From Botryllus schlosseri (taxonomy: Eukaryota): a stretch of 64,000 bases of DNA. How positions within the stretch are numbered: the stretch's first letter is position 1; every line of letters begins with the position of its first letter. Below the pieces are notes generated by a model. It was not told where the DNA came from and ran no database searches. It saw nothing but the letters and a program-made list of their open reading frames with translations. A program made the position numbers and the translations under genes. Location of the stretch: positions 19,222,001 through 19,286,000 of the forward strand of contig CM119372.1 in the NCBI GenBank assembly GCA_051294905.1, given 5' to 3'. This document shows positions 11,401-63,369 of the stretch, piece by piece.

Positions 11401-14400
11401 TACCAGTTGTATACGGGCCGGTATATGCACATTGCACATTTTAAACCCTTCTACCAGAGAACTGAACTCTCCGTTTCGAAACGTGAGCGAACAAGCATAA
11501 AATTACGGTAACTTTTTCGATACAAAGGCCAATATTACGTTGAGCTCTCAGTGATATGAGAAGAAGTCTGGCGTTCGGGATCATTTCTGAACAAACCAAT
11601 CCACCCTTCTCCTTTCATTGCATGGCAAGGGCCCTGCACCATTAGTTACGGAAGTTAGCTTTGTCAAGTTGATGTTTTTCGCTGGTCCCCCTCCCATGTG
11701 TGCCAAGCCAGCATTTCCTCTACAAATATGTCCACTCTGATAAAACGAACCCAGCCAATTAGTTATGCAATGCCTGTCGAGTCGGTGAATTCGTCCAATG
11801 CTAGGATAAATTAGTCTCCGAGGCAACATGTTTCAGAACATGCGATAAAAAATCGACTGACATTGCTGTTACTCTTTTGGTCACGGTTGAATCAGACAAC
11901 TGTAGCTTCGAAATATGTTAGGTGATGTTGTCATTGCTGCTAAGTTCTGGAAACAGCAAATACTCACACACTTTTATTAAAATTACACCTCTCTAACAGA
12001 TTTATTGGGTTTAGCGATATCCCCAGCAATTTTGAACCATGTGTCTGCAACGTAGTCGGCAATTTTACAATGCCTCAAAATATGGATTGCTGGGCTTGAC
12101 ACCTAGCTACTAGCTAGCAACGTTTTTTGGAACATCGACAATGTCTATAACTCCAGACGAAACTGTCGTGGTATCATTTTAAGCTTCTACGCTTCGTTGG
12201 GACCTACTAAAACTGTTCTTCGACAAATATGACATATCGGTTTTCGCCGGTAAAGTTCCCATTCCTTGTTCTTGTTTCTGTTCAAAGCATTCGCGGTGAG
12301 TGAAACACTCTTAAAAATGTACTACGCAGCGGGATTCTCTTGAACCGGAGTCCAACCGAATATAGATTCAAAACAATCTAAACTGGAGCATGTATCAAGA
12401 AACCAAAACACATCAAAAATGAGTATTCATTCAAACGAAACAGAGGAGGGTGCGATAAGAGAGCTAAGCAGCTAAATTAATATGTAATTAATATGTAACA
12501 ATACCGTGTCAGTAATAATTGCTTTCATAATGAAAGGTGTCGCGGGCCGCAAAATAAACGTCTGCGGGCCGCGGGTTGAGAACCACTGATTTAGATAGTT
12601 CAAATACACCCCATTATGCCACTGCACAGAAAATAATGCCACTTCTACACAAGATAACGATAATTCGCTATTTTTTGACCACTTTTGACAATGCTGTGGG
12701 CTAATCACGACTTCGCAAAAATGTCATTTCCACGTTGAGCATCCAGGGCTGCCACGTCGGAAAAACAGCATCAGAGTAATTCTCGTTGATAATATAACTT
12801 TCAGTGGAAAGGGGCGTATCATCGTCCCCACTACTTGTCTCGACCCATTACAATTATTACTCGATTTGGATTCTGACCCCTAATAGTAATACAACCACAC
12901 CAACCTGCATGCAGATATAATCTCCGGGCATGAAGGCGGTTGGATGCAAAACCATACACAAGTGACGCCGGAAATTATCCGACGTGCCTTCAAAGAGCTC
13001 AAGACCGTCCACCATTTTTCGGCATATCTGGTTGTAAATATCCGCGCACAACCTGTTAAATCACAACACGTTGCCGGACTTCACTGGAAATAGCTTCTTG
13101 GAGGTACAGAACTTCAATATACAATTGAATAGTATATTCATATTGAAATGAACCCGAATAATTTCGGCTGACACTCGTCAGGGGTAATCGTCAGCAACTA
13201 GTAGAGAATTCAATAGAACACGTCATGACGTCATATTTTGTGATACGATTGTTGATATAGGATGTTCTTTTGACTCGAGTCATCACAACCCTGACCTGAG
13301 TAACAATGCTGCCTACTCTACCCGATACACTTACAATATGTGAAAAGGGCTAACGCTTGCAAAACACTCTCACACCGCCCCGGATGGGAAGTCATGGTCA
13401 TCAGCCTTATCAATCCTCGTCTCATTCCAACGGAAAACTGATGATCACATGAGCGAACGCACGTCAACAAGGTAGACTCACCCAAACGGTAAATCCGGGA
13501 AGAGCTTCATCACGTCGACGCCCTGATTCTTCATCCACATATAGTCGTAATACTGCACCACGTGGTCGTACAGCGTTTTGTCGAATTTCAAATCCGTCAT
13601 GTAACTCTTCACGCTCTTGAAAAAACGGAACATGACATAACCCCGGGAGACGACATTTGCATCAAATTAGATAGATATGTTTTTAGTCGTCACACGAATT
13701 AAAAGAGAGAAAAGATATACAGTCGACTCTGCTTAATTCATACATAGGCCTGCATATGGCACAATAAGAAGTACTTCTTTCGTTTTAACACATGATGAGC
13801 GGTTACAGTGAAACAATGACAATCCATGCAGTAACAATCGAAAATGAACTCACACGAGGCCGTGCCACTCACGTGCCAGCTTCGTGGTCGCAGTTAGTTG
13901 CCTTGTTGGATATATCAAAAAGTACCATTTGAACCCTATATACAGTATTTTTTGAAAGGTTCCGTATCGAAAATGCTGCACAATACAACTAACATGAAGG
14001 TATGAGCATAACTAACAGCCGTTTCATGAGATCTGTGCCAATTACTGCAGTATAGCGGAGCCGTAATTATTTCAATATGCAACAGTACCGTATTTTGCAT
14101 GCGTTGTTTGGCTTTAACACTGAATTAAGCGCAGTCTATGGTATACCAAAATGGAAATATAGAACAGGAGAGAAGAAAATATTCAATTGTGTACATGTCA
14201 CAAACCAAACATACCGTGACTCGCTGTTCGTACCACACTCGCAGAGACTCGTCGTTGGAGAGCGTGGCGGCCACCATGCCGAGCACGTAACCGATCACCA
14301 GCTTTCCGCCCACCATCACCAGGCATGAGAAGATCATTTCCTCGAGAGTTTCCGGTTTGATATCGCCATAACCGGTAGAAGTCATGGAAGCGGTCGCCCA

Positions 14401-17400
14401 GTACCAGCTGTCGATCCACGGTATCGCTTCGTAGCCCATAATGCCTAATTGGATGTAATCTGCAGCGAGGGCGTGTTAGTAGCATGGATATGCCGCAACA
14501 TCACAAATTGAGATGGTCGGTGCACTTGTGCGTTTTCACTATTTTCACTTGTACTTTTCAGGCATGCACTTTGCATCTTGTGAAGTAGAAACTCGATTTT
14601 AGGGTATACTTGCATCAGTTTTGGGAGGGAAAATGTGGAAAAAGTGCCCCTGTAACACTGTAATTGAATATATTTTCAAATATTGCGCCTATTTGTAGTG
14701 CCATCGGTCATTTTGCATTAGTTACGAATATACATTATAAAAGCTGCAATTTCAAAAGTGTCCAACTCCGGTTAACTGCGAAAAGTATGCGACCTATTGA
14801 CCGAATATACTATTGATACTACTCACTTGATCATTTATCATATCTTCATATTCCACTTCTACTGCAAGCAGTTTTGACATGTCTTGGAAATTGCTACTTC
14901 TATTCGTAATTGAGTAGATTTCTACTGCTACTCTTGGGTGACAAAGTAATTGCACAGCCGCAACAAAATACTGACAAAACAGCAATTCCTACTTGTCTCG
15001 CGCGTCGTGACCCAGGAAAACTGTCCGCATTCTCCGCCAGGACAGGCCAGAAAGTAAAAGATGCAGGCGGCCGCATGCATCAGGAATAACACAGACAAAA
15101 GGAACTTGTACATCCTGATGACGAGAACGCTGTGAAAAAATACAACAGTTACAATTCGCCACCAGCGCGACCGCAGCGCAGCCATACTCTCTCCGGATGT
15201 CTCTCTCCCACATTCTGCATATGGACGTCAGTTTGAACATGCGTAGAATGCGTAAAATGCGCAAATACGATATCCATTCGAATCGCGAGGCGTAGGTCTG
15301 GGAACGCACAATAAATTCGACTGCTAAGGTTTGGACGCACACTGCCGAACATTGATCTGTTTTGGCGGTTATATAAAACGAATGCAGTCAGCTCAAACTT
15401 GGTAGTCCAAATGTTTTTCCGATTATATATGAATCCGAATTTTTCAAATTACAGTACAAAGCACAACCTCTTCCACGGTAATATTTTCTACCTACCCCAC
15501 AATGCTACTTGAAGAAAGTTCATGTTACTAAGATAGGTCCTCTGTATGATAAGGAGAATATAGTTAACATGCATGTTCTACAACAACAAGCACATATATT
15601 TGCACAGTGCATAGAGGCGGGGCTACATCATCGAATGCACTCGCCATTGATCTTCAGGCCATGAGACATCATCAATTATAACAAAAAATACCAAACACAA
15701 CAGATACTCACCAGTGAAGTAGAACGGGGGTCGGTTACTGCGTGCCCGAAGATCTCCAGGGGTATGTTGGTAATAGCGTCTAACAGGAATTTCTTTGGAT
15801 CCTTGGCGTAATTGGCTTGAATTTTCTCACGGTTGGTGACGTTTGTGCTGAACTTATCAAGGTAGCTGGTATGGAAGGCTATGATCATGTCAGCCACAAA
15901 CCTGGAAGGGAATAAATAGACCACAAGGCTCAACACGACTGTTCATGCAACCTAGATTTTTACCAGTCATTACCAGATTGCATACGATACGCTGACCTTT
16001 ATAACATCATTATGGGTTGCCTTCGAAGGCAGTTGTATCACAGTTTTAGTGGTGTTTTGGAATGATGAAAATATTAATAAACTGATACTGAGAACGCGAG
16101 CAGAATAGCAAGCGACAAAATAGCCAAATATTCAATATATCGAGTCCCATAATAGCAACTCATTCAAAATAGAGAGTGAGGGCTTGGTGTTAGGTTAGCT
16201 TGTGTTATAGTTAAGGATAAGTTCATGTTAAGGTTACCCGTATGTTAAATGATTCGCTATCATGAGAGTCGCTATTCTGAATGCCTCGCTTATGAATCCT
16301 TCACTTTTTCAAACTCCTTGCTGTTAAGAAAGCCTTTCTATTTTAAACATGTGCTGTCTTTGGCAAACATTCTCCATCCATCAACAATCAAGACCACAGC
16401 GACTTGAAATGATTTTGCAAAAGTAGACCAAGGAGCTCAGCAATATTACAAAAAAATAAGACTTACCATGCCAGGGTAGCAATAGACCTACGGGTACCGC
16501 AAAATTAATGACTCACCAGACGTCGATCATATATCCGATAATGTAGAACGCAGACCGATGAGATTGGAAGCACGGCTGATAAATGGTGATGCACGCCGAA
16601 AGAAAAGCGAGTATCACGGTGACGTTATCCCATACTCGGCAAAATCGAGACTCCCGATCCATAATCTGAAAATAGAGAACTTGTCAAGAGCTTCGCACGG
16701 CAACTCGGAGTTGATCCCTCACATTCGCATATTTCAATTTATCTGCCCCGTCGTACCGCGCTCCGCTCTGGTCGAATTCAATGTCCCTGGTAACGTCCGC
16801 CGTGCTGGTCTGACGGACGTAGGTGCCGGAACCTGTCCCTTGAACTTTACGATCCTGGTAAATTTACATCGAGCTGTGTTTACACTGATCGTTTTGTTTT
16901 TATTGGAACTACTTGACGTATTGAGTGCTGGAATAGGCTTAGAATTGTAGCCAAGTCACAAGTCAATCTCACTTTTATAGGTTTAACTTGAGTCAAGTCG
17001 AGTCATTTTCAATTTACCGCCAAGTCAAGTCCGAGTCCAAGTCATTGTGTTCACTGTTCAGTTTTGAGTTCAATCGGGATCCAGCCACATTTTTCAACTC
17101 TGCTCGAGTGATATAGAGTGGCTCGCTTTCATAATATAGTAATTTTCCGGCCCGATTTTCCAAGTATCAGGACTGATAGACGAAATACCAACAACGTGGT
17201 GACTTTACTATTAATTTAAGTCACAATGAAATGTCTGACTTCGCTGTCCTAGTCTCGATTCCTATAACTTGGTTCGATTCAAGCACCATGACTCGAGTAC
17301 AAGTCTAGTAGAGTCATTTTACGCATTTGAGAAAATAGACTGAATCAAGTCGAGTCACCAAAAAATCGTGTTTTTGGCTACTACCACTTCCAGTTATCTG

Positions 17401-20400
17401 TTTTCAGGCAATGCTACTTATCTTCTACGACTTTGGATTTTGAAAAGTAGAAAGCAGTTTAAGATCAGTTTGGATCAATTTTATGAGTACCGTAATTATC
17501 CAAGTATAGTACGCCCCCATGTATAATACGCACCCCTAAAATAGCATGTAAATTCTGGGAAAAAGCCTGTACCCATGTATAGTACGCACCCTGCATTTCA
17601 GTACATGAATAGTTCCGATTTCGTATACGATGTCATTCTGTTTTGCGATGTCACTCTTGAACAATCATTACACAACGATCGCTAATCATTATACAATTAG
17701 CGGGATTGTCTTTAAACGATAGTAGATAGCAGCCAAAGCCTGCGGCGCGATAGTTCAGGCTAGCGACACGACATCTTGAGCACGAGGAGACCTTTTACAG
17801 ATGCGATTGCTAATCATTATACAACTAACGGTATTGTCTCTAAACGATAGTAGATAGCTGCCTAAGTCTGCGAGGCCGGCGGCAAGTTAGTTTAGGCCAA
17901 CGAACCGACATCTTGCGCACGATGCCTATTACAGATGCGATTGCGCCTAGGCTAACGGTTATGTCATGCGCAACAGGTCTGTTGGAGATGCGACTGATTA
18001 CGCAAGCGATTATATCTTGCGCACATGGCCTCTTGTATATGTATAAATTGCATATGCGCTTGCTCGGGCCTGTCGTTGACGCAATGAATTGGCGAGAATT
18101 GCCGCGCGCGAGTGTCTATTAGTGACCTAATTTCGCTCGCGTACAAACAGCAAACCAACTCAGCAGGAGATCGCGTGCTTGTGCACACGACTCTCGTTAA
18201 TTGGCAACATGCTTCCCACAAATTGGCAGCGCGTTACACTCTATAATACGAATTATTACACGCGCTGGCTGAAAGTGATGCGCGATTGGAAACAAACATG
18301 AAGATAGGTGTGATTTCAAGTTTTTGATCGAGGGAGATTTTTTTCAAGGCTTGTTGTACCCATGTATAATACGCACCCCCTTATTTTAGGGCAAAAAATC
18401 GTGAAAATTTTGCGCGTTTCACATGGAAAATTACGGTACTAGATTTGCATCCATGTGTGATGTCACTAGTCATGTTGCGTTGGTCGCAAAGATATTTATC
18501 TGACAATTTCGAATGTAGCTGACACTGATAACACCCTAAAACAATGTAACCTGGCGTTGGTACTCAAAACAGAAGAACTATAGTGATAGCGATTTCGAAG
18601 ACATGTCAGAATCCCTTCAAGTGGTAGTAGCAAACGAAAGTCTGAACAATCGTCAACATGGTATAAAAAAGTTGATTTGGTCGTTGTGTTGTAAACTTTT
18701 AGCAGTTGATCGCATGTGGCTACTTTGGAGATTGCCAAATGCATCGTCACGGCTTGTTACTGACCCCCTGACCACAATCGTTGCCGATGACATTCCGCCG
18801 AAAAATCCGTCGCATACAGCCCAAAGAGGTCGACAAGAATGATAGTTACTGACCTGCGCGATGGAGGTCATCTGGTCGTGAAACTTCGGAAATTTGCCCA
18901 AGATCTCGTCCAGATCTTTCTTGCTCAGAACGTTGAGATCGCAATTAGTCAGCGCCACAATGGTACGGGCTCTTGGTGACGCGAAGAGCAGAGATATCTG
19001 AACACAGGAGAAAGCAGCTTGACTGTTTGCGCACACGATTCAACGAACGTTGAGATATACTTCTCCGAAATGCTGCCCAGGTCCTAGCACGACGGCGATG
19101 GATTGGTCGTTCTCATCCAGGATAGCGACGTTGCCACGTTGAATGAAATACATTTCTTCACCTACGTCGCCACGCCTATCAATGTATAGGATCACTCAGT
19201 ACTGTACAATGTGTACATTCATGTATTATACACTGAATTCATCACTAGCATCATTGCTTGCAATTGGATTTTAGTATGCTTTAAAGCGGTAGTTTTCAAC
19301 CTAGGGGTCCCAAAGATATTGATCTTTTTATTTATCAGCTTCCCTAATAGGACATGAGCGAATCTTGGTGAAAGCGCTGTCCTTTCTTAAATTTTGTTGG
19401 GTAATTTGCTTCCTAAATAGCCTGCGAGTAGGTTTTAGTGATCACCTTATTAAAATTAAAAGTAGATCGTGGAACATTTTCAAATTGGAAATGGTTCGTG
19501 ACCATAAAAACGCAACGGCTGTCAAGTTTCAAAGGACAGCATTATTATAGAGCAATTGAATAGTACATTCATATTGAAATGAACCCGAATGTTTTCGGCG
19601 GACACTCGTCAGGGGTAATCGTCAGCAACTAGTAGAGAATTGGAAAGAACATTGTATATCAACAATCATATCACAAAATAGAGCAGGTTAACGAACAGAA
19701 AATTACATGAAAATAACTAAAAATACAACTTTAAGAAAGGTCACTAGATCCGTAGTAGGAACTGCAGAATCAGTGATTATTCCCAGTCAGGGTCTTATTA
19801 ATGCAACTAATTGATATAGTTGCAAGACGCTCAGTCTATTACTAAATTTCAAACACCTGCATATCACTCCGTCTTTCATAAAGAGGCTCGGCTGGATATG
19901 AGTCGACATAAGCCGGAAAAAGCCTTCCTTTTCTTTACGATCTTCCTCGGAACTAAGCACAAAGTTATCGATAAGACGGCCCACCGGTTAAGAATTGCAC
20001 CGTAAATTACCCGTCGACGTCATTCAGTTGGAAAGCCTCTTTGATCATGTCGTTGTACATGCTCTGACAGACGCTCGTTCTGATGGAAAGCGGCAAGCCT
20101 CTCAACAGGTAGCTAGGACTGACACCCTGCGTTCTATCCCAGAGATAGCAATAGTAGTTCAGGACCTGGAAATATTTCCAATTCTGTCTGCCTCAATCAC
20201 AAATATTTTAGGCTATCGATCACGTAGATATATCGGCGTCAATGAAGTTTTGAGAAAAACCAGGTGGACGGTTGAATTAATGCAAGGCCATTGAAATATT
20301 TTTTCGACCCATTATGTAAATCTAGTTTATTTCTGATAGAAATTACTTTGTCCGAGTCTGTTCCAATATCATGTTGACCCGACTGTATTCGATAATGAGA

Positions 20401-23400
20401 TTTCTAGCGATTTCTGTGGGTTTTATGTTGAGCATCGATGTTAACTGTTAGTAGTTCTTGCATTTTATATCAGTTGGACAAAAAGATACATAAATTGACC
20501 TTGTCCAACAAATACATTAGTAATCGTTAGTTCTATTACTTCAGCCGCTCAAGACACACAATGTACAATGCGATGCAATGAACAGATAGGAGGATATCGA
20601 AATGACCATTTACGGTCTCTCAATCTCAAAACCGGGGGCTGTTCAGTGACACGACGCAGGCTGATGCTCTTTTTCTGTCTTTTTAGTCATGATCTAGCCA
20701 AGTGTTTGAGATCTATGCTCATTTTACACCAGCCCGATCTTGGTTATTATGATTCCTGAGATGCAAACTTATAGCACGCCCACTTTCGCTCAAGACTTTC
20801 TGTAAGACAACACTTATGCAGATCGGATGGTGAGATGGAGCCTAGATAAACCGTCAACACTTACGAGGGATTCTGGAGTCGACCTCGGTCGGACTCGAAC
20901 GCGCGACCCATTTGTGTTGCAGCGGTGCAACGTACCACTACGCTACTAGCGTCTCAGGGTATTCAAAGCGCTAGGCTAGGTTGTCTCGAACTTTCTTTCC
21001 CTTTGAGAGGGTGCCGCGAGGTAGGGAAGGTTGAGAACCACTGGTTAACTAGTTATTTCTCAAACAGACTAATCACCGCATTACCTGCTCTTATTCTCAT
21101 GGCTACATGCCGTCTACTAAGCCATAGCCTATAGATGAGTCGGAAGCGTCTATGAGATACTGCAATGGATAAAGAAATCGCACCTGTCGTTGAGTCCGTT
21201 TGTCGACGTCATACACTTTGAAGAACTTGAGAATATCAGAAAGTCGGCCCTTGTAATGGCCCCGTTGCATGTCGTCCGTTTGGATGTTGGCAGCAATCTC
21301 ACCAAGCACGTACGAATAATACACTGTCCCAAGAATCATTACCACTGTAGCCATAAACATCTCCACCTGTTTTTACATTGAAAGAGCAAAACTTTGGAAC
21401 AAAGCTAGTAAATTATGTGAATGGAAATCCACAAAAAATAGCAGGATTTGGGTGTTTTATGGAATTAACAAAGTACAGAGCGACAATTAGACATAACAGG
21501 TAACATACGTCACTGTCAAGTTTCGGTTACACACTTCCACGTAAGGTGGCTGTAGAATAGATGTTAGGTGTCAAACTGATGGCCAGTAGTGGCATTCTAT
21601 GGTCAATGACACAACATTTCAAGTAAAGTCGTGGATCGTAAATTCAAGCAAACACAAAACATATGGAGTCAACACTGTGACAAACTGACTATATCACTGT
21701 GTTTCTAAAATTTATTGGAAAACATAAGCGCAAGGCCAGATTATTGGAGACAGTCATTTGGCTGATGTGGCTCACATCGGCAATGAATCTTGCGTTACGG
21801 TAATTTATGCTTCTATGAAAAACTGTATCAACTCTACAAGAACGATACAAAACCAGAGGAAAGTTGATGCGAACCTGTCTTTCTGCGTGGATATCGCCAT
21901 ATCCGACACAAACCAACGTTGCCGTCGACCAATAAATGCTAACAAAGTACTGATGAGTGTAGGAAACGGCCAAATCCAGTGAAGGAAAGATATGAGAGTT
22001 GGATACAATTCTTCCGACCCAGGATTCTGCGTGGCAGTACATTGGGTCGCCGGTGCTGCTGAGGGAGATCCATGCATTTCCGTCCGCATACAGATCAGTG
22101 TTCTAGAAGAACGTGCAAGAAATTTGAGAAAAACATCGACCGAGGTCGTTGTACAAATGAGACTGAAAACCTCAAAATCGGGTGCATTATTTTGGTGTTG
22201 GTCACTGTGTCCTGGCTTACTACAGCATTTATAACTTCCTTCGCAGACAAGACGTAAAATACTGAAAACGACATCTTACAGGAGAGATTATATCATAACA
22301 GCAGCAGACACACGCAATTTAATAGAATTTGTAAACTTTTGACAACGAGAGAGAGAGAGATATGATATTCTTTCTCGCCTGCACCATCGAGATGCTTTGG
22401 CGACGGAGTTGCGATACGGCCCCATGAGGTCATCTAGTCTGCGCCCCCGTTTTTTTTCTCCTCCATGCTATCCGTGATTGCTGAGCGCCTAGCAGGATAG
22501 CTGCGGATACCATTTTTCGAGTCTTTGGTATGACCCGGCCGGGGATCGAACCCACGACCTACCGCTCGAGAAGCCGGACGCATAACCATTACACTATCTC
22601 GCTCGGGAAGTCGTTAAATCCTGTTAGAACTAGGAACTACCAAACAAAGACCATTTCCGGCAAATTTAACATACAAATTTCAAGTAGTAAGCGTCAACTG
22701 ATAGCCTGCAGGCGGAATGCAGCCCGCAACCGGTTCACTTTGGGTGGTTCACTATGACGGCGTTGAAATGTAACATAGCTGGCCCAATATCGGCAGACAA
22801 TATGATGATCCCACCATTGATTGAAATTGGCCCTCTTGCTTAAGTTGGATCTAGAATAGCGGTTCATAATTGGGGGGAGAATGTCAATTTTCAGCAGACG
22901 TGCTCTACAAATGGTTTTCAGCATCCCATGTAAGATTGTTAGGTGATTAGCAGATTTTCCTCATTACGTTGAGCATCGTCTGGGTCAAGGGTTGGCAACC
23001 TTTGTGTGCTCGCAGACCGGTTTCAAAAAACACCAAAGTTCAACGATGAAAATTAATTGCACCGCATAAGTATACGGTCAGTAAAGGGTGCACAGTAGGG
23101 TTGCTTAAAAGTAACTTTTTTTCTTTGAGTTCAGGGATTCACAGATTGAATTGCTAGGTTGGCTAAAAACGCTGTACACCAGATTTGGCTCAATTCCAGC
23201 CAGTAGAAGCTGACGCAGAGCCAATTGAAATTTTTGAATTTATCATAAAAAATTGGAAATTGTTAAGTTGCCTAAAAGAACGATGTGTCAATTGTTTTTT
23301 CAATTTTATGCCAATGGTGTATTCAACTGTTGTTCTTTCTTCAACAACAACAACAATTTGACACAGTACAGTAGTGTAGCACAATTTTTACAATGGTAAA

Positions 23401-26400: not shown

Positions 26401-29400
26401 ATGGCTTCCAGTATATTCTTCCGGTACATTTCGTTTTTCTCGATTATTTCCATTTGCGATTTCAAAATCGGAAATGAACGCAACACTAGATCAATGTCGT
26501 CGCGGGTCAACATGATAATTTCGCAGGATGTGTCAGCAATCACAGTTCTCGGAGATGCGCATCCAAACAAAATCTGAATTCGATTTCACAACGATGGGAT
26601 TCGGGTTAGTCGAAATGAAATGTACCTCTGTCTCGCCAAAGTAGTCTCCAGGTGTTAAATGATCGATGGTGTGCTTCAGATCTGGCGTCACGACGTAGCA
26701 ATGTCCTTGTTTGACAATGCAAAGATTACGGGACAAATCGCCCTGAGAAAAGGAGCAACAGATCAAATCAAATATATAAGACGGAAAAAATTCAAGTGGA
26801 ATCAGTGCAAATAGAGCAAGGAGCTACAATTGTACCACATACTTCAAAGTTTGTTGTTGCCATTGTTAAAATGTGTACTACGTGGTCCATAACTTTGACT
26901 GCTACATCATATTTTTCCATATTGGCTTCGTTTTGGAATTTGATCAAATCCGTTTAGTGTGCCAATTACACTTGATAAGAGTCACCCGAAAAGTCTTCCA
27001 GTTTTAAGAAATGCATTACTGCGATGGACATTGTGACAGTGTTGGGATGACTCGAGTCATGACTTGACTCGAGTCACCTTTTTCGCATGACTTGACTTGA
27101 CTCGAGTCACTTTGCTAAAATGACTTGACTTGACTCGGCGTATCAGAAATATGGATTGACTCGTGACTCGGAGCAAAATTCACGAGTCAATTTCAAGTCA
27201 TCAAGTAATCGGTGTCGATAAAAATCACTGTATCTTGCATATATTCGGATTGTTCGCGAAACTCTGGTGTAACCCTTGAGGGCGACCAATCATTCAATGA
27301 TCGTGTGTTTCACTGTGCCTCGATTGTTCTCTCACAAATCAATTGACTGCAAACAAAGTGATAGAAGCTTACAACTTACGTTGTCGTAACTCTAGTAGTA
27401 AAGTAATAAAGTAGCAAAGTGTCTATTTCTGTTCTTACCTTAACCAAACCTCTTGTTTTATTGAAATTGAATTATAATATAGTTTCTATAGTTCTTAACC
27501 ATTGGCGCAGGTTCGAATTATATCATATCTATTTATAAATAGGTAATGTATTGCATCTTATCAAGTCGTTTCTCTATTCTCTATTTTGGCCGATAACTAT
27601 AAACTGAAGCTATGCAATTACGTAGTATACCAGTTCTACGTATAAGTGAGCGATACAGCGTCTTCTTACGTGTATATTTAACTCTATATTCGTTCATCGG
27701 TTCGGAATCAATGATCACTCAATCTGTATTTCAGACAGCTAGCAAATTGAAATGACGTGATCATGCCTCATCCTTCGAAAAAGCAACTTGACTTGAAATG
27801 TGACTTGACTCGTGACTTGACTTGACTTGACTTGACTCGAGTCACCTCCAAAAATCGAGTGGCTTGACTTGACTCGAGTCACCTTTGAAAATCGATTGAC
27901 TTGACTTGACTCGAGTCAAAATGCGAAATGACTCGAATTGACTCGTGACTCGAAGGTAGTGACATGATCCCAACACTACATTGTGACAGAAGCAATCTTC
28001 AGAGTACAAGTGTATACTGTATAATGCATGCAGGGAATTTTATCAAGAATCTCATAATCTGCAAGCTCTACATAAAATTATATAATCGAAAGGTCAGGTA
28101 ACTAAAAGAGCTTTAATCATAACTGGATTTTATGATCTCACAAAGGTAACCTGTCACAAGAACAACAGTCCTCGCAAAGAACGATTACCGTATCAATATA
28201 ATATCAATGTAAAAACCTACCTCATAAATCACTACATCGCCAGCCGCATAGTGGTAAGATTGCGCATGACCGCAAAGCATCGCAACAAAAGACGAATCCA
28301 CATCATAAAAGAAGGGCAGAGACTTCACCAATTCATTCACACTTTCGTACAGCAACGCGCCGTGCAAGGCTTCGGGGAGTTCCCTGCCAATTGTTTCGAT
28401 ACCAGGGGTGGCGGTGCCCCGATAACGGTGCCATTCCAGAAATCTACAGTCCAAGACTCTCTTTACCAGACAAGTTGGAACCTTGAAAGGATAGTTGAAA
28501 ATAGTTGAGCCGGCACGAAAATTTGACACTGAGAGCCGGCATCTTGCCGGGTGTAATTTTGGGTGGACAAATATCAGTGAAGAAGATTAGGGTGTGGCAA
28601 TTCTCAGCAAAACACGAGATACATCAACGAAGTGTGTCGTTACTTGACATTATAATAGGGTTGCTGTAGAATTCCCATGCGCAGTTATGTTCATTAGAAG
28701 ACTTCATCACCATGGCACAACAACATCTGAATTAGATTATGCAAAGTCACACTGCTGTAATAGCCTACAGGTTAACCCAGCCACTGACGAGCCAAGCCTA
28801 TTCTAGTCTAGTCCTAGTCAAAGGTAAATGGGTAGGGTTGTCGCAGAAAGCGCATTTATTGTAAAACTACGGTCAAACTATATTGAGAATCACTGACCCG
28901 CACTGAAAACCACTATGCAGGAAAAGTTGAATGACACTGTGGTAATATAAGTTCATTTTTCTATATCTTGAAACAGGAAACAAAGCAAAACCATGTGCGT
29001 CATTTAGTCCCAAAATGTATAAAATTTTGATCACAAAATAGATGCTAGTTGGTGTGACATTATTGACTTCAATGTTTACCGCATTCAAAGTAGCGGATTT
29101 CTTTTGACATGTATCAACACGCAGATCGGTTACTGAGATTTACAATACGAAATCAAGTGATTAAAATTAGAATCAAATTATGGAATACTCTAATGTGCTT
29201 TCTCTTAAAAGTGAGCAACAAGGTTATATAATAATGGAGCAATGAGCATTGAGCATACATCCCGCCATATAAAATCATTGGTGGCATTTTCAAATTGTCT
29301 TATTATCATCCAAGACATAGCTCAACCATCATGTCAAACAGCATGTAGAAATCTGACTAGAGGAATTTCAACAACATACCAAAGTGAGTGACATGAGCAC

Positions 29401-32400
29401 CTGTGCAATTCAATGTTATTAGATAAACATACCCCATGAACTGTCAAATACTGCGTTGTGGATACAATTGAATTCATGAAGCTCACGAACGCCGCCTCAC
29501 TGTTGGATACAGTGGATGCAATTACGGCAATCAACCATCCATACAGCAACGTTCCGATGATCATAGTTATCAATGCGAACATGCGACCGGTAGTAGTACT
29601 TGCTGATATATCCCCATAACTAATAGATAATAGAACAGAGTGGATTATTCTGGCACCACAACAACGCAGAGAACATACCCGGTGCTGGTCAAGGTAGTAG
29701 AAGCCCAGTACATGGTTTTGATGTAATCTTCAAAGTTGCTGGTGTCAAAATCCAAATTGAATACCCATGCCCAAGAGCCAATTCTACATTTTGTCGGGAA
29801 CAGCGTCTGATCGCTTGAAATGAGAAAATAAAAGCAATGAAAATAGAACGCATGGTGCTACATAAAGGGAGAGAGGGAAAGAAAGGAAAGGACGTAGTTT
29901 ATTTTTGTCCTTGATGTTTTTGCGGCATATACACCGACTCATGATACACATACACACGATCTGCGCATATGCATATCACGAGTGCACGATATGCATATGC
30001 CGCTGGACAAGGAAGGCTGTACACCACCCCTCTATGCTATTCCAGTAATGCATGAGCGCCAAGCAGGGAAGCCATGGATACCAGTGATACTAATCAGGTC
30101 TTTCGTCTGACCCGGCCGGGGATCGAACCCACGACCTACCGATCAAGAAGCCGGACGCTTAACCATTACGCTATCTTGTCGGGAAAGAGATTGTAATGAA
30201 TCTATAAAAATTGAATTCAGACGAATTGTCATAAAAGCAATTATAAAGTTTGATGTCCTGGCAGATGAACGACTCAGTTCGTATTAACCAAAAATACATT
30301 TCACTACCTAAAAAACAATACAGTGTGCTGCCATTGTAAAGCACACTCCAAGTGACATTAAAAATTTCATGAAACCAATTTCAGGAACACCAAATCGAGC
30401 AAGAAAACTTCAGCAAATTCCAATCCATTTCTGCCTACCTCTGCATGATATAACCGCAAGACCACCAGTAGAAGAATCCTGAGCAGACATGTGTGAACGT
30501 GTAGATGTAAATAACAAATTTGATGACTCTTATTCTGACGATCTGAACATCCAGTGAATATTCCCATTTCGCAAACTGCCTCGGGACGAATCGGAAATAA
30601 CAGATGGCCCGATTGATTCTGAGATAGATCCACATGTGGTAAATGCCCAGTCTCGACAACGGTAGCATGGGGGCGATGATTTCCAGCGGGAAGACTCCCA
30701 TGAGATCCAGCCAAAAGCGATCCCATCTCAGGTAGTGTTCTTTTATGTCTTTGAACTGTGTCAAGATACCTGAAAAGTTTTATGATAGTGTGACGAGATT
30801 TTCTCTATGCCACATATTTACTGGTTGTCTGCGACAAAACAATTTCACTGTCAAACCAAATTAGTCCCCCTTCAGTTATAAAAACATCAAATAGTACTCA
30901 AGATATTGCTGCCGGTGAAGAATCAAGTAAAAACAGCAGACTGCCTACTTGCTATTTAAAAAGTCAAAAGGTTCTGGAACCGAACGCATGCCTTTGTGAC
31001 GAACATTCCATACACATTCAATAACACATCAGTTGCTACTTGCTTGAATACATGCAGTGCCACTAATCGATTAATTAGCTTACCATTAGGCATCTTAACG
31101 GCAGTTCTCAAATGAACCAGAATATTGAGGTAAAATGACAGATCCACAAGGAAATATGCAATGAAGATTTGCACTATGCCGCCGTCGGTCTCAGTATTGT
31201 AACCGGAAAAAGTAACGTCATAAGAGCCCGGAATTGAGATGCTGAAATACACAATGCTTTCGTATAGTAAAGCCCTCGAAAATCACAACTCAACATAACG
31301 TACTTGTAACCATCAGAGGAATTTCCAGTTATTCTGTTTGCAAATGTAGTATTGAGGTCTTGCAGACATTGAATCAATATATTTTGCGTCGCAGACGACC
31401 CACAGTTATTCAATTCTGTAAGATCGTCAAATTCGCCAGAATACTCCGCAATGCTCTGAAGGGGAAGGGACTCCAAGTCAGATCCGACATAAAATCTCTC
31501 TGAAAAGCACAGTTGATAAGCACACAAACCAAATTGACAGAACTTGTAGTGCAACTGACCCATTCCTGGCGTTGTTACAAAGAATAGCATAAAGGTAGTG
31601 TACAGCCCCGAGAAGAAAGACATGTAGAAACGGTAGGTTTCCCAGTATTTTGCGAATTTTCCATCCGGATGTATTATGGTGATACTGCCAAGTCTTTGCA
31701 ACGCAGTGGTTTTGTCTGGGTCCTTGAACGAATTATAATGGCATTTAAATATATATCAATCCGTGATGACATTGGAAATAAGTAGTCATGGTCGGCAGGC
31801 GCGTAGCCAGCCGAAAAATAAGGGGGGGGTTTGAAATAAAAGGGGGGGGTTCGATTTTTTCCGAATTTTGTAACATAGCATCGATTCGTTAGGGTTAAGT
31901 ACATGTGATGCGTAAATAACGATTATAAAACATTCCCGTGTTGGCGATTATGGGCGTATGATAAGCTTGTCGACGAGTCCGGAAGTGCTGTTAATTAACG
32001 ACTCCCTGATCTGTCGTGAACAATCAGAAACGCACTCGTCGAACATTTGAAAACACGCGCTTATCAACGCGCCGAACAATTAAATTCGCGCGCTTATCAC
32101 AGCGTCCAACAATTAAATACGCCCGCTCATCAATGCGTCTTGCGTCTTACGTAGCCTCGTGACGAATTGCGCAAGTAAAAATGTACGAGGTTTTATGGAA
32201 TATGTTCTATAATAACGCCGATTTCAGGTGGCTCCAACCTTACTTCTTTCATAACTCAAGCCTACTGGACTATAACTGAAGACTAGTGGAAATCAATTAC
32301 GCATGTACGTACGCACGCGTCGAACATGATTGCGGACATTCGATGTCGTTCAGTTACGAGATGTCACTCTTTAATCACAATCGCTAATCAGCATATACTT

Positions 32401-48702: not shown

Positions 48703-49213
48703 TAGGGCTGGGCACAATGATTCGAGTACTCGAATCTGAATCGAGTAATTATTTTAATGATTCGAGTCGAGTAGAAAAATACGATTTTTTCGAGTACTGA
48801 AATTATATGCTTCTCGCCGCGTGAGTTATTTTGTTGACGAGAGTTATGGTTTTGATACTATTTTTCACTGTGGAAGCCTTAAAACCTTGATTGGTCGTAT
48901 CGCAGCATACGAAACATGGTGCAAAGCTACGAACGTTGCTGGAAATAAAACATTTCTGAAGTCACGATCCCCCTACAACATTGTCACAAAGTGAAATGAA
49001 ATCGGTATAGGGTCGAAATAATACCAAAGTATCTTTAATGTGATAGATAACAGGCATTATATTGTTTGTGGTGGCATAAAAGGTATATATTTGAACAGTG
49101 ACATCTTATATGCTGTTATTACGTCATAATGATTGATACTCGTATACTCGACTCGAAGCATAATACGTGATTCAGAATCGAATCACTCAGGTACTCGTTT
49201 TTGCCCTGCCCTA
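48703..49213. mobile_element. hAT-like MITE
   Basis: TIR TAGGGCTGGGCA / TGCCCTGCCCTA; perfect TSD gtgacaat; truncated relative at about 7195-7560. Confidence 0.85.
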
Positions 49214-50890: not shown

Positions 50891-53301
50891 CCCAGCAACA
50901 CCTACCCACTTCATCATAGATCGCCTCTGAGTATGCGTTGGTTGCTTCCCAGCCTACCGTGTTGGCTATAGCCAATAAGTGACAAGCGCAGAAAAGTCGT
51001 AATGACACTATGTGTTGATTATTGTATAGGCTACCGCTAATTATATTACCCAAGTCGTTTGGTTTCATAGGAAGATTTATTTGACATTGGTTTCTCTGAA
51101 AAACTAAGATTTGTGTCGGTAATACTCGTGGGCAGAGTAGATGGCGGGAGAACAGGGTCGTAACTGGGGGCCGAAAATTATTTCGTAAATCAACAATGTA
51201 TTTTGAGGCAGATTTGTTCAACTAGGATCATTTATTTGATGTCACTAGATCTAATGATATATATATGGTTGGCCCCCAACCACCTACCATAGTATCATTT
51301 TGAAATACACATCATTTGTATGATGGAGATTCAACTATATCCGCCGTTTGTCCCACCTGTTCCGTCTCGTTCATGAATTGGGTGATACCGCATTTAGTTC
51401 GCTACAGAGAGTGTGTGTGTTTGTGAATGGGTACTGCGTAGCCCAAGTAGAAATGAGTAGTCATTAAATAACCCAAAGAAGAATGAGAGACAGGATGTGG
51501 AGCTGTCATTAGGGGTGCTCAAGACCAGAACACTGGGTGGGGGTTTACAAATTGGTGTTTGGGATCTGGGAGAGAATGTTGATTTCCGACTTCCCGAGGT
51601 TTAACCTCCGATATTACATTTCCTATTAACCTGTCATCAGTGTCTGCAGTAACGGGTAAAATGACGTCTCCGAACAAAAATCATATCGGCATATCGCATG
51701 CTAAGAGCGCCCAGTGTTGTTCATTGCCTGGTTTAGAGATAGAAAAAGGTGGTGAGCCGATGATATGCGCATGGAGCTTAATACTATAGACCTGTGCATA
51801 TATATTATATAATACTAAGAAGGATAAATGTCATTTGACATCAACCTCACTGAACCAGTGACTTTTTTGTAATGAATGTTTCATAGAACCGCATTGCATT
51901 CAACTGGTTGTCTGCTTCTCTATTTCATACATGCCTGTAAAACGGCATGCAGCAAGACAGCAAGATTACTGTTCAATGTGTGAGGCTTGGGGTCGCAACA
52001 CATCTGAAAAGTTTAAGATCCTCTAACATAGACCATGTATTATTGCCAGCAAGCTGTACTAGGTCCAAGCGTATCCAGGCATCTAATGTAGCTTTCCATC
52101 ATTTCCGAAAATCTACTTGGGATAATCACGAAGTCTTGAATGTTTCCAACATTAGAACCATTCAGGGATCAGAGTAGGCCTATCTTTGTGAATGACACTT
52201 GTCTGCGATTGTCTATTGAAGCACAAGATTCATTTTGTAATTTATTATGGAAAGATCCTTAACACCAGCAATCATATCGCAATATAATTTTCTATAAATT
52301 GAAGATTTTCCTAATGTTACCGCTTGGATATGCGATAGGCTATCAATCATCAGAAGTAACTGGTAACTTGAGTTTTCAAAGTCCGTTTAAAACAATATTA
52401 ACGAAAAATTTAGTAGACCTGTTGAAGTTGACTTGTCTATGTCACCTCCAGAGGGTATGATCAATGCTAAAATGATTTCAAGAGAAGATTTGCTGCTATA
52501 CCAACTAAAAGTATGTTTTAGTAGTATGCAGGTGTAATGATAGCCATCCATATGGAAGAGTTACTATGTGCCGATAATACTATATGCTTGGTGCTTCTAG
52601 CTTGACTGCCAGTATGGGTTTTGATAGCTATTTAAAGCTGTCTGTGTAAGTGTTTGATATTCGTGCATTTATTACAAAACACCAAGCATATCAATTTCCG
52701 AGAAATATCATGTGTCGTGAAAATGATTATGCTGTTACTGGGTAATCATCGGTTTAGAGTTGTTGTTGTTGTTGTTGTAATAATAATGATGTTCAGCACA
52801 GTACAGCGTGCAACGCACTCATTTATTTCCTAATATTGAATATCCATTTATTTTGGTTCTTGATTGATCATTGTATCACAGCTGTGCATAAATTGATGTC
52901 AGATTGTTATTCATGGTTGTGAAACTAAATCATGCAACTCTGGTTTAAATCTTTCTATCATGCTGTGTTACTCAATAAATTGATAACGCCTCGCATGATG
53001 GAAAAATTGGAAATATCGGATTGCAATATTTGATTTCATCCGTTTATCATGCCATGAACAGTACCAAGCCCTGATTAGAAAATGTGAGTAATTCTGGTTA
53101 GTCATGACTTGCAGCTTCCTTTGTTATATGATATTCCAGTCAAATCACCAGTCATGTTCCTGCTTTCGGGCGATTGATGGATCCTACCTTTGCTACGTCT
53201 GCTTCAAATCGATTTTTGTTCTGTCGAAACAGTGTATTTGGTAGTCGTATCCTATAAGTAGTGAGGTTTCTTAGAACGGTTGCTAAATTTTCTGTGACAA
53301 G

Positions 53302-55542
53302 ATGCCTCTCGCGCCGTTTGCGAACGGGCCTTTCACGCAGGCGATACATCCGTTGACGGAGGAAGTTGACGATGACATGTCTGTGGACGCTCCTGACCTG
53401 AAAAACGATGTGAACATGACGGAAATCGAGATTAACGAACACACGAGGAAAGGAGAGAAAGCCAATCCAAGCCATTTCGAGATATTGAAAGTGCTCGGGC
53501 AGGGGTCCTTTGGAAAAGTGTTCTTAGTTAGGAAAATAGTAGGCTGGGATAAAGGCCAGCTGTACGCCATGAAAGTGTTAAAAAAAGCAAAGCTGAAGGT
53601 TCGCGACAGACTCCGCACTAAAATGGAAAGAAACATCTTGGTGGACGTGAATCATCCATTCATCGTGAAAGTCTTTTACGCATTCCAAACCGAAGGCAAC
53701 CTGTATCTGGTCCTGGCGTTTTTGAGAGGCGGCGATCTATTCACGAGACTGTCGAAAGAGCTGATGTTTACGGAAGATGACGTGAAAATCTACCTGGCCG
53801 AGCTGGCTCTGTCTCTTGATCACCTGCACACTTTAGGCATTATCTACCGGGATTTAAAGCCGGAGAACATCCTGTTGGATATCGACGGTCACATCGCTCT
53901 CACCGACTTTGGTCTCAGTAAGGAATCCGTAGACGAGGCCGAGAAGGCATACTCGTTTTGTGGCACTGTCGAATACATGGCGCCAGAGGTAGTCAACAGG
54001 AGAGGGCATGATTATTCTGCCGATTGGTGGTCGTTCGGCGTTCTCATGTACGAAATGCTCACTGGTCAACTGCCATTTCAGGGGCGGGACAGGAAAGACA
54101 CGATGACTCAGATCTTGAAAGCTAAACTGGCTATGCCGCAGTTTCTCAGCCACGAGGCGCAGAGTCTGTTGAGAATGCTTTTCAAACGCAACCCTACCAA
54201 CCGTCTTGGAAGTGGCAGCGATGGGGTGGAAGAGATAAAACGGCACGAGTTTTTTGCCAGTATCGATTGGAACAAGTTGCTTAGAAAAGAGATCGAGCCG
54301 CCTTTCAAGCCGGCGGTGACACGAGCGGAAGACGCGTTCTATTTCGATACTGAATTTACGTCGAGAACGCCGCGAGATTCGCCTGGTGTGCCGGCGAGCG
54401 CTAAAGCTCAGCAGTTGTTTCGCGGTTTCTCTTTCGTGGCTCCTATCATTGAGGAGGAGGAGCCTAAGGAAGCGGACCCTGTCCAAGTCGCAAACGGGAA
54501 AGCAAACAACCGCGATTTCTCCGGCACGGTCCTGCTGACCAACACGGTCGCAGCGCAATCCCCCAAGACATTCTACGAAGAGTACGAAGTCAAAGAGGAG
54601 ATTGGGATAGGCTCGTACTCGGTGTGCAAGCGTTGCCTGCACAAGAGCACCAAGAAAGAGTACGCTGTCAAGATCATCGACAAGAGCAAGCGCGACTGTG
54701 AGGAGGAAGTGCAGATACTCCTGCGATACGGGCAACATCCCAACATCATCACGTTGAAGGATGTGTTCGACGACGGGCAGCATGTCTTCCTGGTCACCGA
54801 GCTCATGAAAGGCGGGGAACTTTTGGACAAGATTTTGCGTCAGAAATTCTTCACCGAGCGCGAGGCGTCCGCCGTGATGCGCACGGTGTCAAAAACGGTT
54901 GAGTACATGCACAAAAGTGGCGTCGTGCATCGGGATTTGAAGCCTAGCAACATCCTGTATGCGGACGAGACGGGCAATCCCGATTCGCTGAGAATCTGCG
55001 ATTTTGGATTCGCGAAGCAGCTGCGGCACGACAACGGTTTGCTGATGACCCCGTGCTACACCGCCAATTTTGTGGCGCCCGAGGTCTTGAAGAAGAAAGG
55101 GTACGACGAGGCTTGTGACATTTGGAGTCTCGGCGTCTTGCTCTTCACGATGCTGTCCGGGTACACGCCGTTTGCCAATGGCCCTGACGATACCCCGACA
55201 GATATCTTGAAAAGGATCGAGGCTGGAAAATTTAGCTTCTCGGGGGGCACTTGGAAAACCGTGTCTGACACGGCCAAAGATCTCGTGCGCCGGATGCTTC
55301 ATATCGACCCCAACCGACGTATAACGGCGCCCCAGGTATTGCTGCATCCGTTTATCGCGCGTCCCGACCAACTGCCGGAATACCAGCTGAATCAAGCACG
55401 CGATGTCAAGACCGTGAAAGGCGCCATGTCGGCCATGTTTAACGCGGCGAGGTCCCACAAGGCGCTCAATCTGAACCCGGTGGGCGCATCGTTTCTGGCA
55501 CAGAGACGCGGGCAGAAGAAGGTAACATCCACCGCGCTGTAA
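53302..55542 (+). CDS. RPS6KA: p90 ribosomal S6 kinase (RSK), single-exon CDS, 746 aa
   Basis: Two kinase domains: N-terminal AGC ([24 protein letters not shown]) and C-terminal CAMK-like ([18 protein letters not shown]). Also the turn motif SRTPRDSP, hydrophobic motif FRGFSF, ERK-docking LAQRR and PDZ-type C-terminus STAL. Confidence 0.97.
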
Positions 55543-61707: not shown

Positions 61708-62592
61708 CTGCAAAAGAAACGATACGCGATTGAGAAACAGTGTGGGACGCTGTCATCATTATTATTGAACAGAGCCAGAACAAGCTTGCTTGGGTAAGCT
61801 AAAATTATTTTTAACAAACCGGTATACTATTATCGATATAGATAATATTCCTTAAATGACTAGCTGATACCGCCAAGACATACAGTACTTTTATGAGCCC
61901 AACAACAAATATTATCATAGACCTTGGGATGGCGAAAATCAGAACTTTGTCACCTTTGCTTACTTAAAGAGATATGTATGTAATATATTTTCGACACTAG
62001 TTTAGTGTTCTGGGTGATGCCGAGTATTGTTAAAATTATTTACATCCAGGGTGGCCACCAGCCACACGCCTGATAAAGGTGTCAGTGCCAGCTGACGTGT
62101 ATCGACCGTGACCTATGAGATGATAACTATAAATAATACAACGGCTATATGCTTCTATAAGACATTGCCCATTAAGGTAATGACAGATCTTACAACAACG
62201 GTAAAACAGGCGACCCTGGATATGATACAGCAATCTACCATGTTGAAACTGTCGATTATCTCATAATTCCTAGAGCGACCGCACCTCAAAATTTGATTTA
62301 TGCATAGTGACGTAATTTTTCTTTGATTACGCCAAATTGATTCTGACTTGACTATGTCATTATGACTTAGTTTCGGCTAACCAAATTGGTTATGGCTATG
62401 CCCCCAAAGTAGACATAGTAGTTCAATGGTTCCATCACATCAGATGTGCAAGTCTGTATCGTGCAAGCTCGATACGCATGGTCAGACAAAATCTTCAAGT
62501 ACCCTGCCAAAAATATTGTAATCACTCCCACAATCGCAGTAATGCCACAGGCAGATGGCATAATATAGATTTGGCGGGCGGGATAAACTTAC

Positions 62593-62833
62593 CGCGCACT
62601 CATCGCGAATCGTTCTGTATCTCGTGATCACTTCGCCTCCGTAGCCCATCAGTTTCAGGGCTCTTTCGGTGGAGTCGTCAGCCAAGCTGTTGACGGCGAT
62701 CATGTTCTGACACCAGAAGGTGACGTTCTGCCTTGCAGTGGAACTGAGCAGTCGCAAGAAAGTTAGCTGGCTGTCGTAATTGGCACCCGCGATCCTGCTT
62801 TCTGGAGCTGGGTCGTAGCTCATGCGATTCATG
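62593..62833 (-). CDS. Fibrillar collagen C-propeptide (COLFI), penultimate exon
   Basis: QLTFLRLLSSTARQNVTFWCQN...ALKLMG...DECA matches the COLFI consensus. Acceptor ttttcacag, donor GCG|GTAAGT. The gene continues beyond the window end. Confidence 0.9.
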
Positions 62834-63043
62834 CTGTGAAAACGTTCATGTCACAACTTAAGGATTAAATATCGTTAGGGCTTTGAGCGATTCGATTTTG
62901 AATCAAGTATCAGTTTGGATGTTGTTGAAACATGTTTCTTTTATGCGACCACACAAAGAAGATAATGTCAGCTCTACAACGCATTAAAGATGATTTGGTA
63001 TTTTTTCAACCATACCTTTGTCATTTGAACAAACTCTCGGATG

Positions 63044-63369
63044 TACAGAACTTCAATATAAAATTTTATGATATATTCGCATTGAAATAAACTCGAGTAT
63101 ATTCGGCTGACACTCGTCAGGGTAATGATCAGCAACTAGTAGAGAATTGAAAAGAACTTTCAACTATCAACAGTTGTATCACCAAATATGATGTCACTTT
63201 TTGACACCGCTGTGAGTTGACCACGGCTTCAAAGAAATGTCATTTCCATTGACGTGTGTGGCTTTGTCTTACACATTTCGGATGGTGTGCTGCGACCGAG
63301 CGAGGTTTCGAGGCCACAAGTATGGAAAAATAGTGTCGAAACTAAAATTCTTGTTGATAATATAACTCT
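63044..63369 (-). mobile_element. Longest copy (~330 bp) of the hammerhead-bearing non-coding repeat (retrozyme / Penelope pLTR-like)
   Basis: Similar to 13105-13270, 19553-19681 and 39320-39455 (ribozyme part) and to 12706-12802 (aaatgtcatttcca...ttgataatataact part). No TIRs and no recognisable ORF. Confidence 0.6.
63091..63135 (-). ncRNA. Degenerate hammerhead motif, copy D (collagen intron)
   Basis: Minus strand: ACC CUGACGA G UGUCAGC C GAA UAUACU C GAGU; A15.1 and stem I are altered. Confidence 0.55.

Follow-up and report, generated by a model that had tools for sequence, protein, structure and literature searches.

Four minus-strand blocks in Botryllus schlosseri as probable truncated ends of a Penelope-like element with a predicted hammerhead motif and a possible pseudoknotted helix II

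Introduction

Canonical endonuclease-positive Penelope-like elements (PLEs) carry one open reading frame (ORF) for a reverse transcriptase (RT) and an endonuclease (EN), form partial tandems that make up pseudo-long terminal repeats (pLTRs), are adjoined by an inverted 5′-truncated copy and possess an optional tail of 30–40 bp at one end (PMC8557442, PMC11167929). Here, we describe four short blocks on the minus strand of a 64,000-nucleotide stretch of the Botryllus schlosseri genome (assembly GCA_051294905.1, contig CM119372.1, positions 19,222,001 to 19,286,000; this whole 64-kb stretch is referred to as the window, and coordinates are counted from its first letter), each containing a motif that resembles a hammerhead ribozyme. 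An initial annotation of the window had ascribed the blocks to a dispersed non-coding family, retrozyme-like or pLTR-derived, with a unit of at least ~330 nt. The blocks are compared here with a PLE of the same genome, termed family A, and with the closest described hammerhead-bearing systems.

Minimal hammerheads in the pLTRs of PLEs were described by Cervera and De la Pena in 2014 (PMC4209133), with a short helix I, a palindromic helix III and a U3-A8 variant of the core, a helix II of 6–8 bp formed in cis, an extra base between positions 9 and 10.1, a G10.1-C11.1 pair, and weak in vitro activity as dimers. The motif described here resembles these ribozymes in its type I topology, its location in a PLE terminal repeat, a helix I of 4–5 bp, the G10.1-C11.1 pair, a one-pair helix III whose palindromic loop implies dimers, the U3-A8 core variant, and its occurrence as thousands of dispersed single motifs from truncated elements, with some close pairs on opposite strands. 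It differs in helix II, of which only G10.1-C11.1 is made in cis, the remainder pairing with a strand located 3–5 nt upstream; descriptors demanding a cis helix II would therefore miss the motif. None of four motif strings was found in the supplementary files of the 2014 paper, of which all but one were searched. In itself the element is ordinary: PLEs bearing minimal hammerheads have been published from 2014 onwards, and the genome is rich in copies of the present family. Only the pseudoknotted helix II may be new.

A related arrangement is known from the pseudoknot (PK) hammerhead, the discovery of which is credited to Weinberg et al. 2015 (in PMC11300833) and in the crystal structure of which (PDB 8YDC; Zhan et al. 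2024, PMC11300833) a 6-bp pseudoknot replaces helix II, the partner strand lying 5′ of helix I. The present motif has the same order of elements and likewise pairs the strand after the CUGANGA box with a strand 5′ of helix I over 6 bp. In the PK hammerhead, however, the 5′ strand constitutes the loop of an additional stem-loop, helix IV, and is joined to helix I by an A-rich linker forming a minor-groove triplex, whereas here the strand is single with no support for a helix IV, the linker measures 3–5 nt, G10.1-C11.1 is kept and helix III belongs to the dimer type. According to a review from 2020, PLE hammerheads lack helix III or loop-loop contacts and, in the part available, leaves a pseudoknot unmentioned (PMC7761336). 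In the literature covered, from which Lunse et al. 2017 and Weinberg et al. 2015 are missing, no PLE hammerhead was found to be described as having a pseudoknotted helix II.

In the Poseidon element PAc of Anolis carolinensis, the optional tail of 30–40 bp arises from two adjacent internal RT start sites near the start of the ORF (Frangieh et al. 2024, PMC11167929). Mutating the core of the PAc hammerhead left insertion in vitro unaffected, cleavage required the protein, and RNA-seq reads ending at the site were absent (PMC11167929). The element analysed here shares with PAc the optional tail, a hammerhead at the start of the ORF, insertions made from uncut RNA and the lack of RNA-seq ends at the cut. 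The two differ in that the PAc ORF begins inside the ribozyme, with the cut 26 nt after the start codon, while the cut predicted here lies 3–19 nt before the ATG.

Metazoan non-LTR retrozymes, reportedly treated by Cervera and De la Pena in 2020, are said to contain type I hammerheads with a weak helix III. Animal retrozymes have been proposed to derive from PLE pLTRs (Li et al. 2026, preprint). Type I hammerheads, a weak helix III and a proposed descent from PLE pLTRs are common to both systems. Retrozymes are, however, short non-coding tandem units with circular RNA, while the present copies are truncated ends of a coding element and form no short-period arrays.

Results

Direct reading of the letters confirmed that the shared minus-strand block is present at all four of the places indicated by the initial annotation. 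A covariance model (R1), built from copies other than the four in the window and containing stem I, G10.1-C11.1 and A15.1-U16.1 but none of the pseudoknot pairs, picked up these four in the 64-kb window and no others, each of them on the minus strand. The copy near 13 kb aligned with the other three at 84.7–92.9% identity over 99–124 nt (BLAST within the window), and all four displayed 83.5–96.1% identity to a full element unit located at positions 1723–4414 of a genomic locus (L043). All four are single, and homology among them, as well as to the element, ends after 128–183 bp, which does not agree with the unit of at least ~330 nt proposed earlier. As the copies are collinear with the last 128–183 bp of the element and differ only in their 5′ truncation, they do not constitute a separate non-coding family; of the two origins that had been offered, derivation from pLTRs is retained, while the retrozyme-like non-coding family gives way to the 3′ end of an autonomous 2.69-kb PLE. 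We therefore read the four blocks as the 128–183-bp tail ends of severely 5′-truncated insertions of an abundant PLE, the hammerhead motif of which is predicted to self-cleave, and assign to this reading a probability of roughly 0.85. The copies in the window are dead-on-arrival truncated insertions.

In the 495.5-Mb assembly, a 158-nt query returned 1890 first-look DNA candidates, of which 41 were scored (92–100% identity), and a protein query returned 10156 candidates, of which 140 were scored (91–100% identity). Copies joined to Penelope RT ORFs and tandem arrays, for both of which a genome-wide search had been proposed, were found. The element unit measures 2692 bp and contains one ORF of 848 amino acids (aa) comprising an RT and a GIY-YIG-like C-terminus; a direct tandem array with a period of 2692 bp occurs at L043, where an 860-aa stop-to-stop frame starts inside the block, and open frames of up to 860–863 aa were observed among the loci of the protein search. 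At L043, 14 nt separate the predicted cut from the first ATG that follows it, and the preceding unit has its stop codon ~145 nt upstream of this ATG, the hammerhead motif thus occupying the ~145-nt spacer between a stop codon and the next ATG. Longer copies run directly into RT/EN coding sequence. Head-to-head pairs with both 3′ ends outward were present at 13 of the 30 loci fetched, with inner break points that vary by locus and flanking duplications of 8–16 bp. The paired arms are unequal: beyond the motif, one continues for 34 nt and its partner for 68 nt, and the optional tail accordingly amounts to 34 nt.

The Pfam profile RVT_1 scored 36 bits in family A (cut-off 29.6) and 29 bits in a second family, B, and a CxC...YVG...R...H stretch of the GIY-YIG type is located near the C-terminus. 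The protein matches 815 database proteins (best 64% identity), which carry precomputed PF00078, PF28514 and PF26215 domains and include one relative named as the reverse transcriptase of an octocoral; PF01541 is present in 2 of 120 relatives, among the matches listed. With a single-ORF RT, pseudo-LTR tandems, an inverted truncated neighbour and an optional tail all found here, the architecture is that of canonical endonuclease-positive PLEs.

The commonest family-A string possesses all core positions, a stem I of 4 bp and the G10.1-C11.1 pair, in agreement with the type I hammerhead topology proposed by the initial annotation. Its helix III consists of A15.1-U16.1 around a 4-nt loop, and since this pair encloses such a loop the 6-mer is self-complementary; the palindromic stem III noted earlier is therefore a property of the family, being absent from all four copies in the window. 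The consensus derived from these four copies is also the commonest natural string of the family, as 41 of 95 descriptor hits from 60 genome loci were identical to it and a further 10 of the 95 differed only by C17 to U at a CpG.

Further lineages were reached by way of their proteins. The diverged PLE fragment at 1019–2344 of the window gave access to families B and C, a distant database protein was the starting point for families E, F/G and H, and a metagenome contig scan with protein alignment yielded 80 loci with relatives at 34–68% aa identity. Although lineages B, C, E, F/G and H were found via ORFs and not via the motif, the same layout is located just upstream of each ATG, and the metagenomic relatives share it. 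The core is kept across lineages, while the remainder of the 3′ untranslated region (UTR) is unalignable between A, E and F. Stem I differs in sequence among lineages with its pairing kept; the helix III strand is a self-complementary 6-mer of one kind in A and of another in B, C and E, and a near-palindrome of 7–8 nt in F–H. The predicted cut precedes the ATG throughout, at a distance of 3–19 nt depending on the lineage.

Two side observations concern individual lineages. In lineage H2 (L066, 1893–1953, 4683–4743 and 6177–6237) all three copies display C for the invariant U at core position 4, with the pseudoknot described below fully paired despite the core change; H2 is either a dead lineage or a case of a tolerated change. 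In a metagenomic relative, the end of the hammerhead motif coincides with the start of a match resembling the histone 3′ stem-loop (L073, 152–198; 27.3 bits, cut-off 34).

The distance from the core to the GAAA box is only 8–9 nt, and these nucleotides are unable to pair with each other, so that no cis helix II exists beyond one pair. In every lineage, however, the 6 nt that follow G10.1 and one further base are complementary to a hexamer ending 3–5 nt before stem I. The one-pair stem II of the initial annotation is hence correct as regards G10.1-C11.1 and incomplete as regards the remainder, its supposed loop pairing with the upstream hexamer in a manner that covaries across lineages. The letters of this pseudoknot differ between lineages: across the loci collected, 70 of 72 cells were paired when 12 distinct 3′ strands were matched to the upstream region of their own lineage, whereas free pairing of these strands with the upstream regions of other lineages averaged 4.77 of 6 and reached 6/6 in 14 of 132 cases, and none of 2000 shuffles of the upstream regions attained the observed sum. 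Spacing to the four proximal bases of stem I was 4 nt in 14 of 20 lineage strings.

In a gap-free seed of seven sequences, four of the six pseudoknot pairs change on both sides. The R1 alignment, in which 69 matches correspond to 44 distinct sequences counted, was fitted to stem I and not to the pseudoknot or to C3-G8, and its metagenomic members were picked with a descriptor or model that requires the core. Among these 44, five of six pseudoknot pairs were doubly changed with 95.3% of cells paired, three of four stem I pairs were doubly changed (94.8% paired), and G10.1-C11.1 was paired in 97.7%. The single C3-G8 pair occurred as U-G in 21, C-G in 13 and U-A in 10 sequences; it was paired in 100% and doubly changed in none (0/1), changes being on one side only. 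The observed values were not attained in any of 500 shuffles, and sliding the registers left 16–49% of cells paired, compared with 95.9% in the unshifted structure. A MAFFT alignment of nine lineages was left out of the counts, being misaligned 3′ of the core. The wobble of U3 with G8, present in 21 of the 44 sequences, was mostly metagenomic; a U-G form is to be expected as the step linking the C-G and U-A versions of this tertiary pair. No support was obtained for a helix IV around the upstream strand, for which 53.5% of cells were paired against 51–60% in four of six slid registers. The loop-II strand could alternatively pair with the core box in A and E but not in F–H, so that this arrangement is not conserved.

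The pseudoknot helix would stack on G10.1-C11.1, because its 3′ strand adjoins C11.1 with 0–1 nt between them. Judging from this geometry, helix II may consist of G10.1-C11.1 together with the pseudoknot on which it stacks, the lone base that follows G10.1 would span the deep groove in the manner of loop 1 in H-type pseudoknots, and the short linker would connect the distal ends of the pseudoknot helix and of stem I. We tentatively suggest, as a possibility that we ourselves regard as somewhat doubtful, that a whole clade of animal PLEs has an undescribed hammerhead topology with a pseudoknotted helix II, a dimer-type helix III and a cut just before the start codon.

The first of the four copies (13089–13220, minus strand; 95.5% identity to unit positions 2555–2686; R1 match at 13144–13203, 58.2 bits) is the 3′ end of a 5′-truncated family-A PLE and contains part of the 3′ UTR, the hammerhead motif and the long tail. 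The layout of its motif (13152–13195, minus strand), as read from the sequence, begins with the pseudoknot 5′ strand (13195–13190), the linker (13189–13186) and the 5′ strand of stem I (13185–13182), continues with the core (13181–13175), G10.1 (13174), the crossing nucleotide (13173), the pseudoknot 3′ strand (13172–13167), C11.1 (13166), GAAA (13165–13162) and loop 3 (13161–13158), and ends with U16.1-C17 (13157–13156) and the 3′ strand of stem I (13155–13152). The cut is predicted between 13156 and 13155, and the initial annotation had placed it correctly, on reading the sequence, after C13156 as well as after C19587 in the second copy. The element ATG lies at 13141–13139 (minus strand). 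Adjoining this copy is an inverted inner piece of 45 nt (13226–13270, plus strand), which matches unit positions 2518–2562 at 95.6% identity in the opposite orientation, is without the hammerhead motif and may be what is left of a second, head-to-head arm or of a fold-back.

The second copy (19553–19680, minus strand) displays 96.1% identity to unit positions 2526–2653, is matched by R1 at 19575–19634 (59.7 bits) and has the short tail form, which stops 34 nt beyond the predicted cut; the copy is flanked by a direct repeat of 8 bp, at 19547–19554 and 19678–19685. The third (39313–39495, minus strand; 90.7% to unit 2481–2658; R1 39340–39399, 53.7 bits) is a truncated tail that begins at the last ORF codons and is also of the short form, and the fourth (63023–63197, minus strand; 83.5% to unit 2517–2691; R1 63083–63141, 29.3 bits) is an older truncated tail of the long form. 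The sequence at 63191–63368, taken earlier as part of the 330-nt unit, resembles other pieces of the window at 68–95% similarity, namely 48823–48997 (68%) and 12683–12799; it is probably another repeat and not part of the PLE.

None of the four copies keeps the family form (0/4), and only those at 13 kb and 19 kb keep the whole core. The 13-kb copy carries one change in loop 3, as a result of which its helix III is not self-complementary; in the 19-kb copy both the pseudoknot 3′ strand and loop 3 are altered; the 39-kb copy has U in place of A6 of the core, an altered loop 3 and C17 changed to U; and the 63-kb copy lacks one stem I base and has an altered GAAA box and linker. As each has a damaging change and none has a partner, the four copies are likely to be inert relics. 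A loose hammerhead descriptor passes two of the four (13 kb and 19 kb), both without a palindromic helix III. In Markov simulations this descriptor alone yields 0.5 hits per 64 kb, and the significance of the finding consequently rests on the repeat family and its context rather than on a single motif match.

The window additionally contains a fragment of the second PLE family, B (1019–2344, minus strand), which is not one of the four copies and covers the RT region in a 409-aa open frame with 68.8% aa identity to residues 353–736 of the family-A frame (tblastn). Copies of this fragment that are 95–98% identical exist elsewhere in the genome; the 3′ part after the endonuclease motif has been replaced by unrelated sequence. 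An uninterrupted RSK-like frame of 751 aa (53287–55542, plus strand), intronless throughout, contains two protein kinase domains and Pkinase_C. Exon-like frames of cyclic-nucleotide-binding ion channels span 9734–41328 on the minus strand, with Ion_trans_2 at 29334–29729 and 21689–22102 and cNMP_binding at 37264–37701 and, below the cut-off, at 9734–10234; they may represent two tandem paralogues. The 13-kb, 19-kb and 39-kb copies are located inside this span in the sense orientation (minus strand). In the region 39089–39313 (minus strand), the 39-kb copy ends ~20–25 nt upstream of a pyrimidine-rich stretch, after which a same-strand exon-like frame follows, and the insertion is therefore near a likely splice acceptor.

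Discussion

Several results weigh against the reading of the blocks as ends of an endonuclease-positive PLE with a self-cleaving motif. The Pfam GIY-YIG profile scored 18.7 bits in family B, below its cut-off of 22.6, and gave no hit in family A at E<=0.01. A match to curated hammerhead models, as might be expected from the initial annotation, was not obtained: Rfam gave 0 hammerhead hits in the window at gathering scores, and in scans at E<=10 of nine loci (lineages A, B, E and F and three metagenomic) there was none among 16 matches (9457 bases, six copies) and none among three matches (29156 bases, six other lineages). Helix II in cis amounts to one pair only, and minimum free energy (MFE) folds favour rival hairpins, in which the core pairs with loop II (family A) or the GAAA box with the cleavage-site strand. 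The covariation counts cover sequences related by descent, and since the lineages share descent the independent events are fewer than the cell counts.

RNA reads likewise give no sign of cleavage, though we do not count them against it. In two raw RNA runs bearing the same species label, one unit was covered at a depth of 300–1300 on both strands in the terminal block and mostly at 0–9 in the ORF, and 98% and 70% of the reads, respectively, continue into unrelated flank. Neither run contained places at the site where RNA begins or ends; depth across the predicted bond was 319/363 before and 308/329 after it, with no drop, while loose read ends cluster at both tail ends. As nearly only the terminal block is covered and most reads continue into flank, the reads represent fragments inside host transcripts, and because most stem from such single fragments they neither show nor exclude cleavage of rare full-length transcripts. 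Every insertion, moreover, contains the motif and a further 34 or 68 nt past the cut site, from which it follows that the RNA that was copied was uncut at the motif.

These last results would be expected if the conserved pairings were non-catalytic, serving as a protein-binding or RT-initiation platform or as a fold concealing the core, the hammerhead-like core itself being retained for a reason unrelated to catalysis. Such a role is in keeping with the absence of RNA ends at the site in both runs and with insertions all copied from uncut RNA, and it finds parallels in the anole PAc element, with its core mutants, its need for protein and its lack of RNA-seq ends (PMC11167929), and in the low in vitro activity of PLE minimal hammerheads (PMC4209133); in five of the seven lineages folded, the pseudoknot hairpin alone appears in the MFE structure. 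A non-catalytic role does not, however, account for the retention of all core positions across lineages with otherwise unalignable 3′ UTRs, for the covariation of the tertiary C3-G8 pair (C-G, U-G, U-A), for a covarying stem I that connects one hairpin's loop with the sequence flanking the next hairpin on its 3′ side, or for a helix III that is self-complementary or nearly so with differing letters. It is the joint occurrence of the core, C3-G8, stem I and helix III features that specifically indicates the hammerhead fold, and we consider a non-catalytic role unlikely.

The remaining alternatives concern the nature of the repeat. The copies in the window are non-coding, dispersed and motif-bearing, as would be those of a non-autonomous retrozyme-like family in which short hammerhead units spread via circular RNA with a Penelope enzyme acting in trans, and the 2026 preprint derives animal retrozymes from PLE pLTRs. 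Each copy is nevertheless collinear with the 3′ end of a coding element and differs only in its truncation point, longer copies continue into RT/EN coding sequence, the window has no short-period tandem array and homology ends after 128–183 bp, and the only backward joint in contigs is the 2691-nt element period, as expected of tandem DNA; such a family is thus very improbable. A DNA transposon or miniature inverted-repeat transposable element (MITE) with terminal inverted repeats of ~150 bp would explain the many close inverted pairs with short flanking duplications, and Rfam microRNA models do score the hairpins (MIR5565 57.7 bits, cut-off 80). The arms are, however, unequal (34- versus 68-nt tails), the inner break points and the length of the flanking duplications vary, direct tandem arrays exist and the interior encodes an RT and an endonuclease; the unequal arms and RT/EN-coding interiors speak against this explanation, and it is scarcely credible. 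At one locus (L003, 1696–1823) MIR5565, MIR7127, mir-786 and other microRNA models score the long hairpin of head-to-head arms, and these hits are an artefact of the inverted structure.

On the preferred reading, that of truncated ends of a PLE with a predicted self-cleaving motif, RNA transcribed from copies in tandem would adopt the motif's fold, the pseudoknot serving as helix II, and the motif would likely pair with that of a second copy through helix III. The cut would then occur 14 nt upstream of the ATG (3–19 nt in other lineages), possibly helped by the protein of the element, as is the case for the anole element. Because the integrated copies come from RNA that was uncut at the site, cleavage would have a role in the message or in regulation rather than in providing the template, and it is more likely that the predicted cleavage shapes the translated RNA or limits the supply of template than that it makes the template.

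The presence of the motif in several PLE lineages of one genome and in metagenomic relatives provides clean comparative evidence of selection on the hammerhead fold, which includes the passage of C3-G8 through U-G to U-A, while the covarying pseudoknot in place of helix II explains the failure of standard models on these motifs. The motif offers a minimal natural version of the PK hammerhead. Should a whole clade of animal PLEs indeed carry this topology, catalogues that rely on descriptors with a cis helix II and on Rfam models would have missed these ribozymes, and the crystallised PK hammerhead would have a simpler natural cousin in retrotransposons. With insertion templates that are uncut and a cut predicted just before the ATG, cleavage in these elements, if any, would serve the making of the message or its regulation and not the template for integration.

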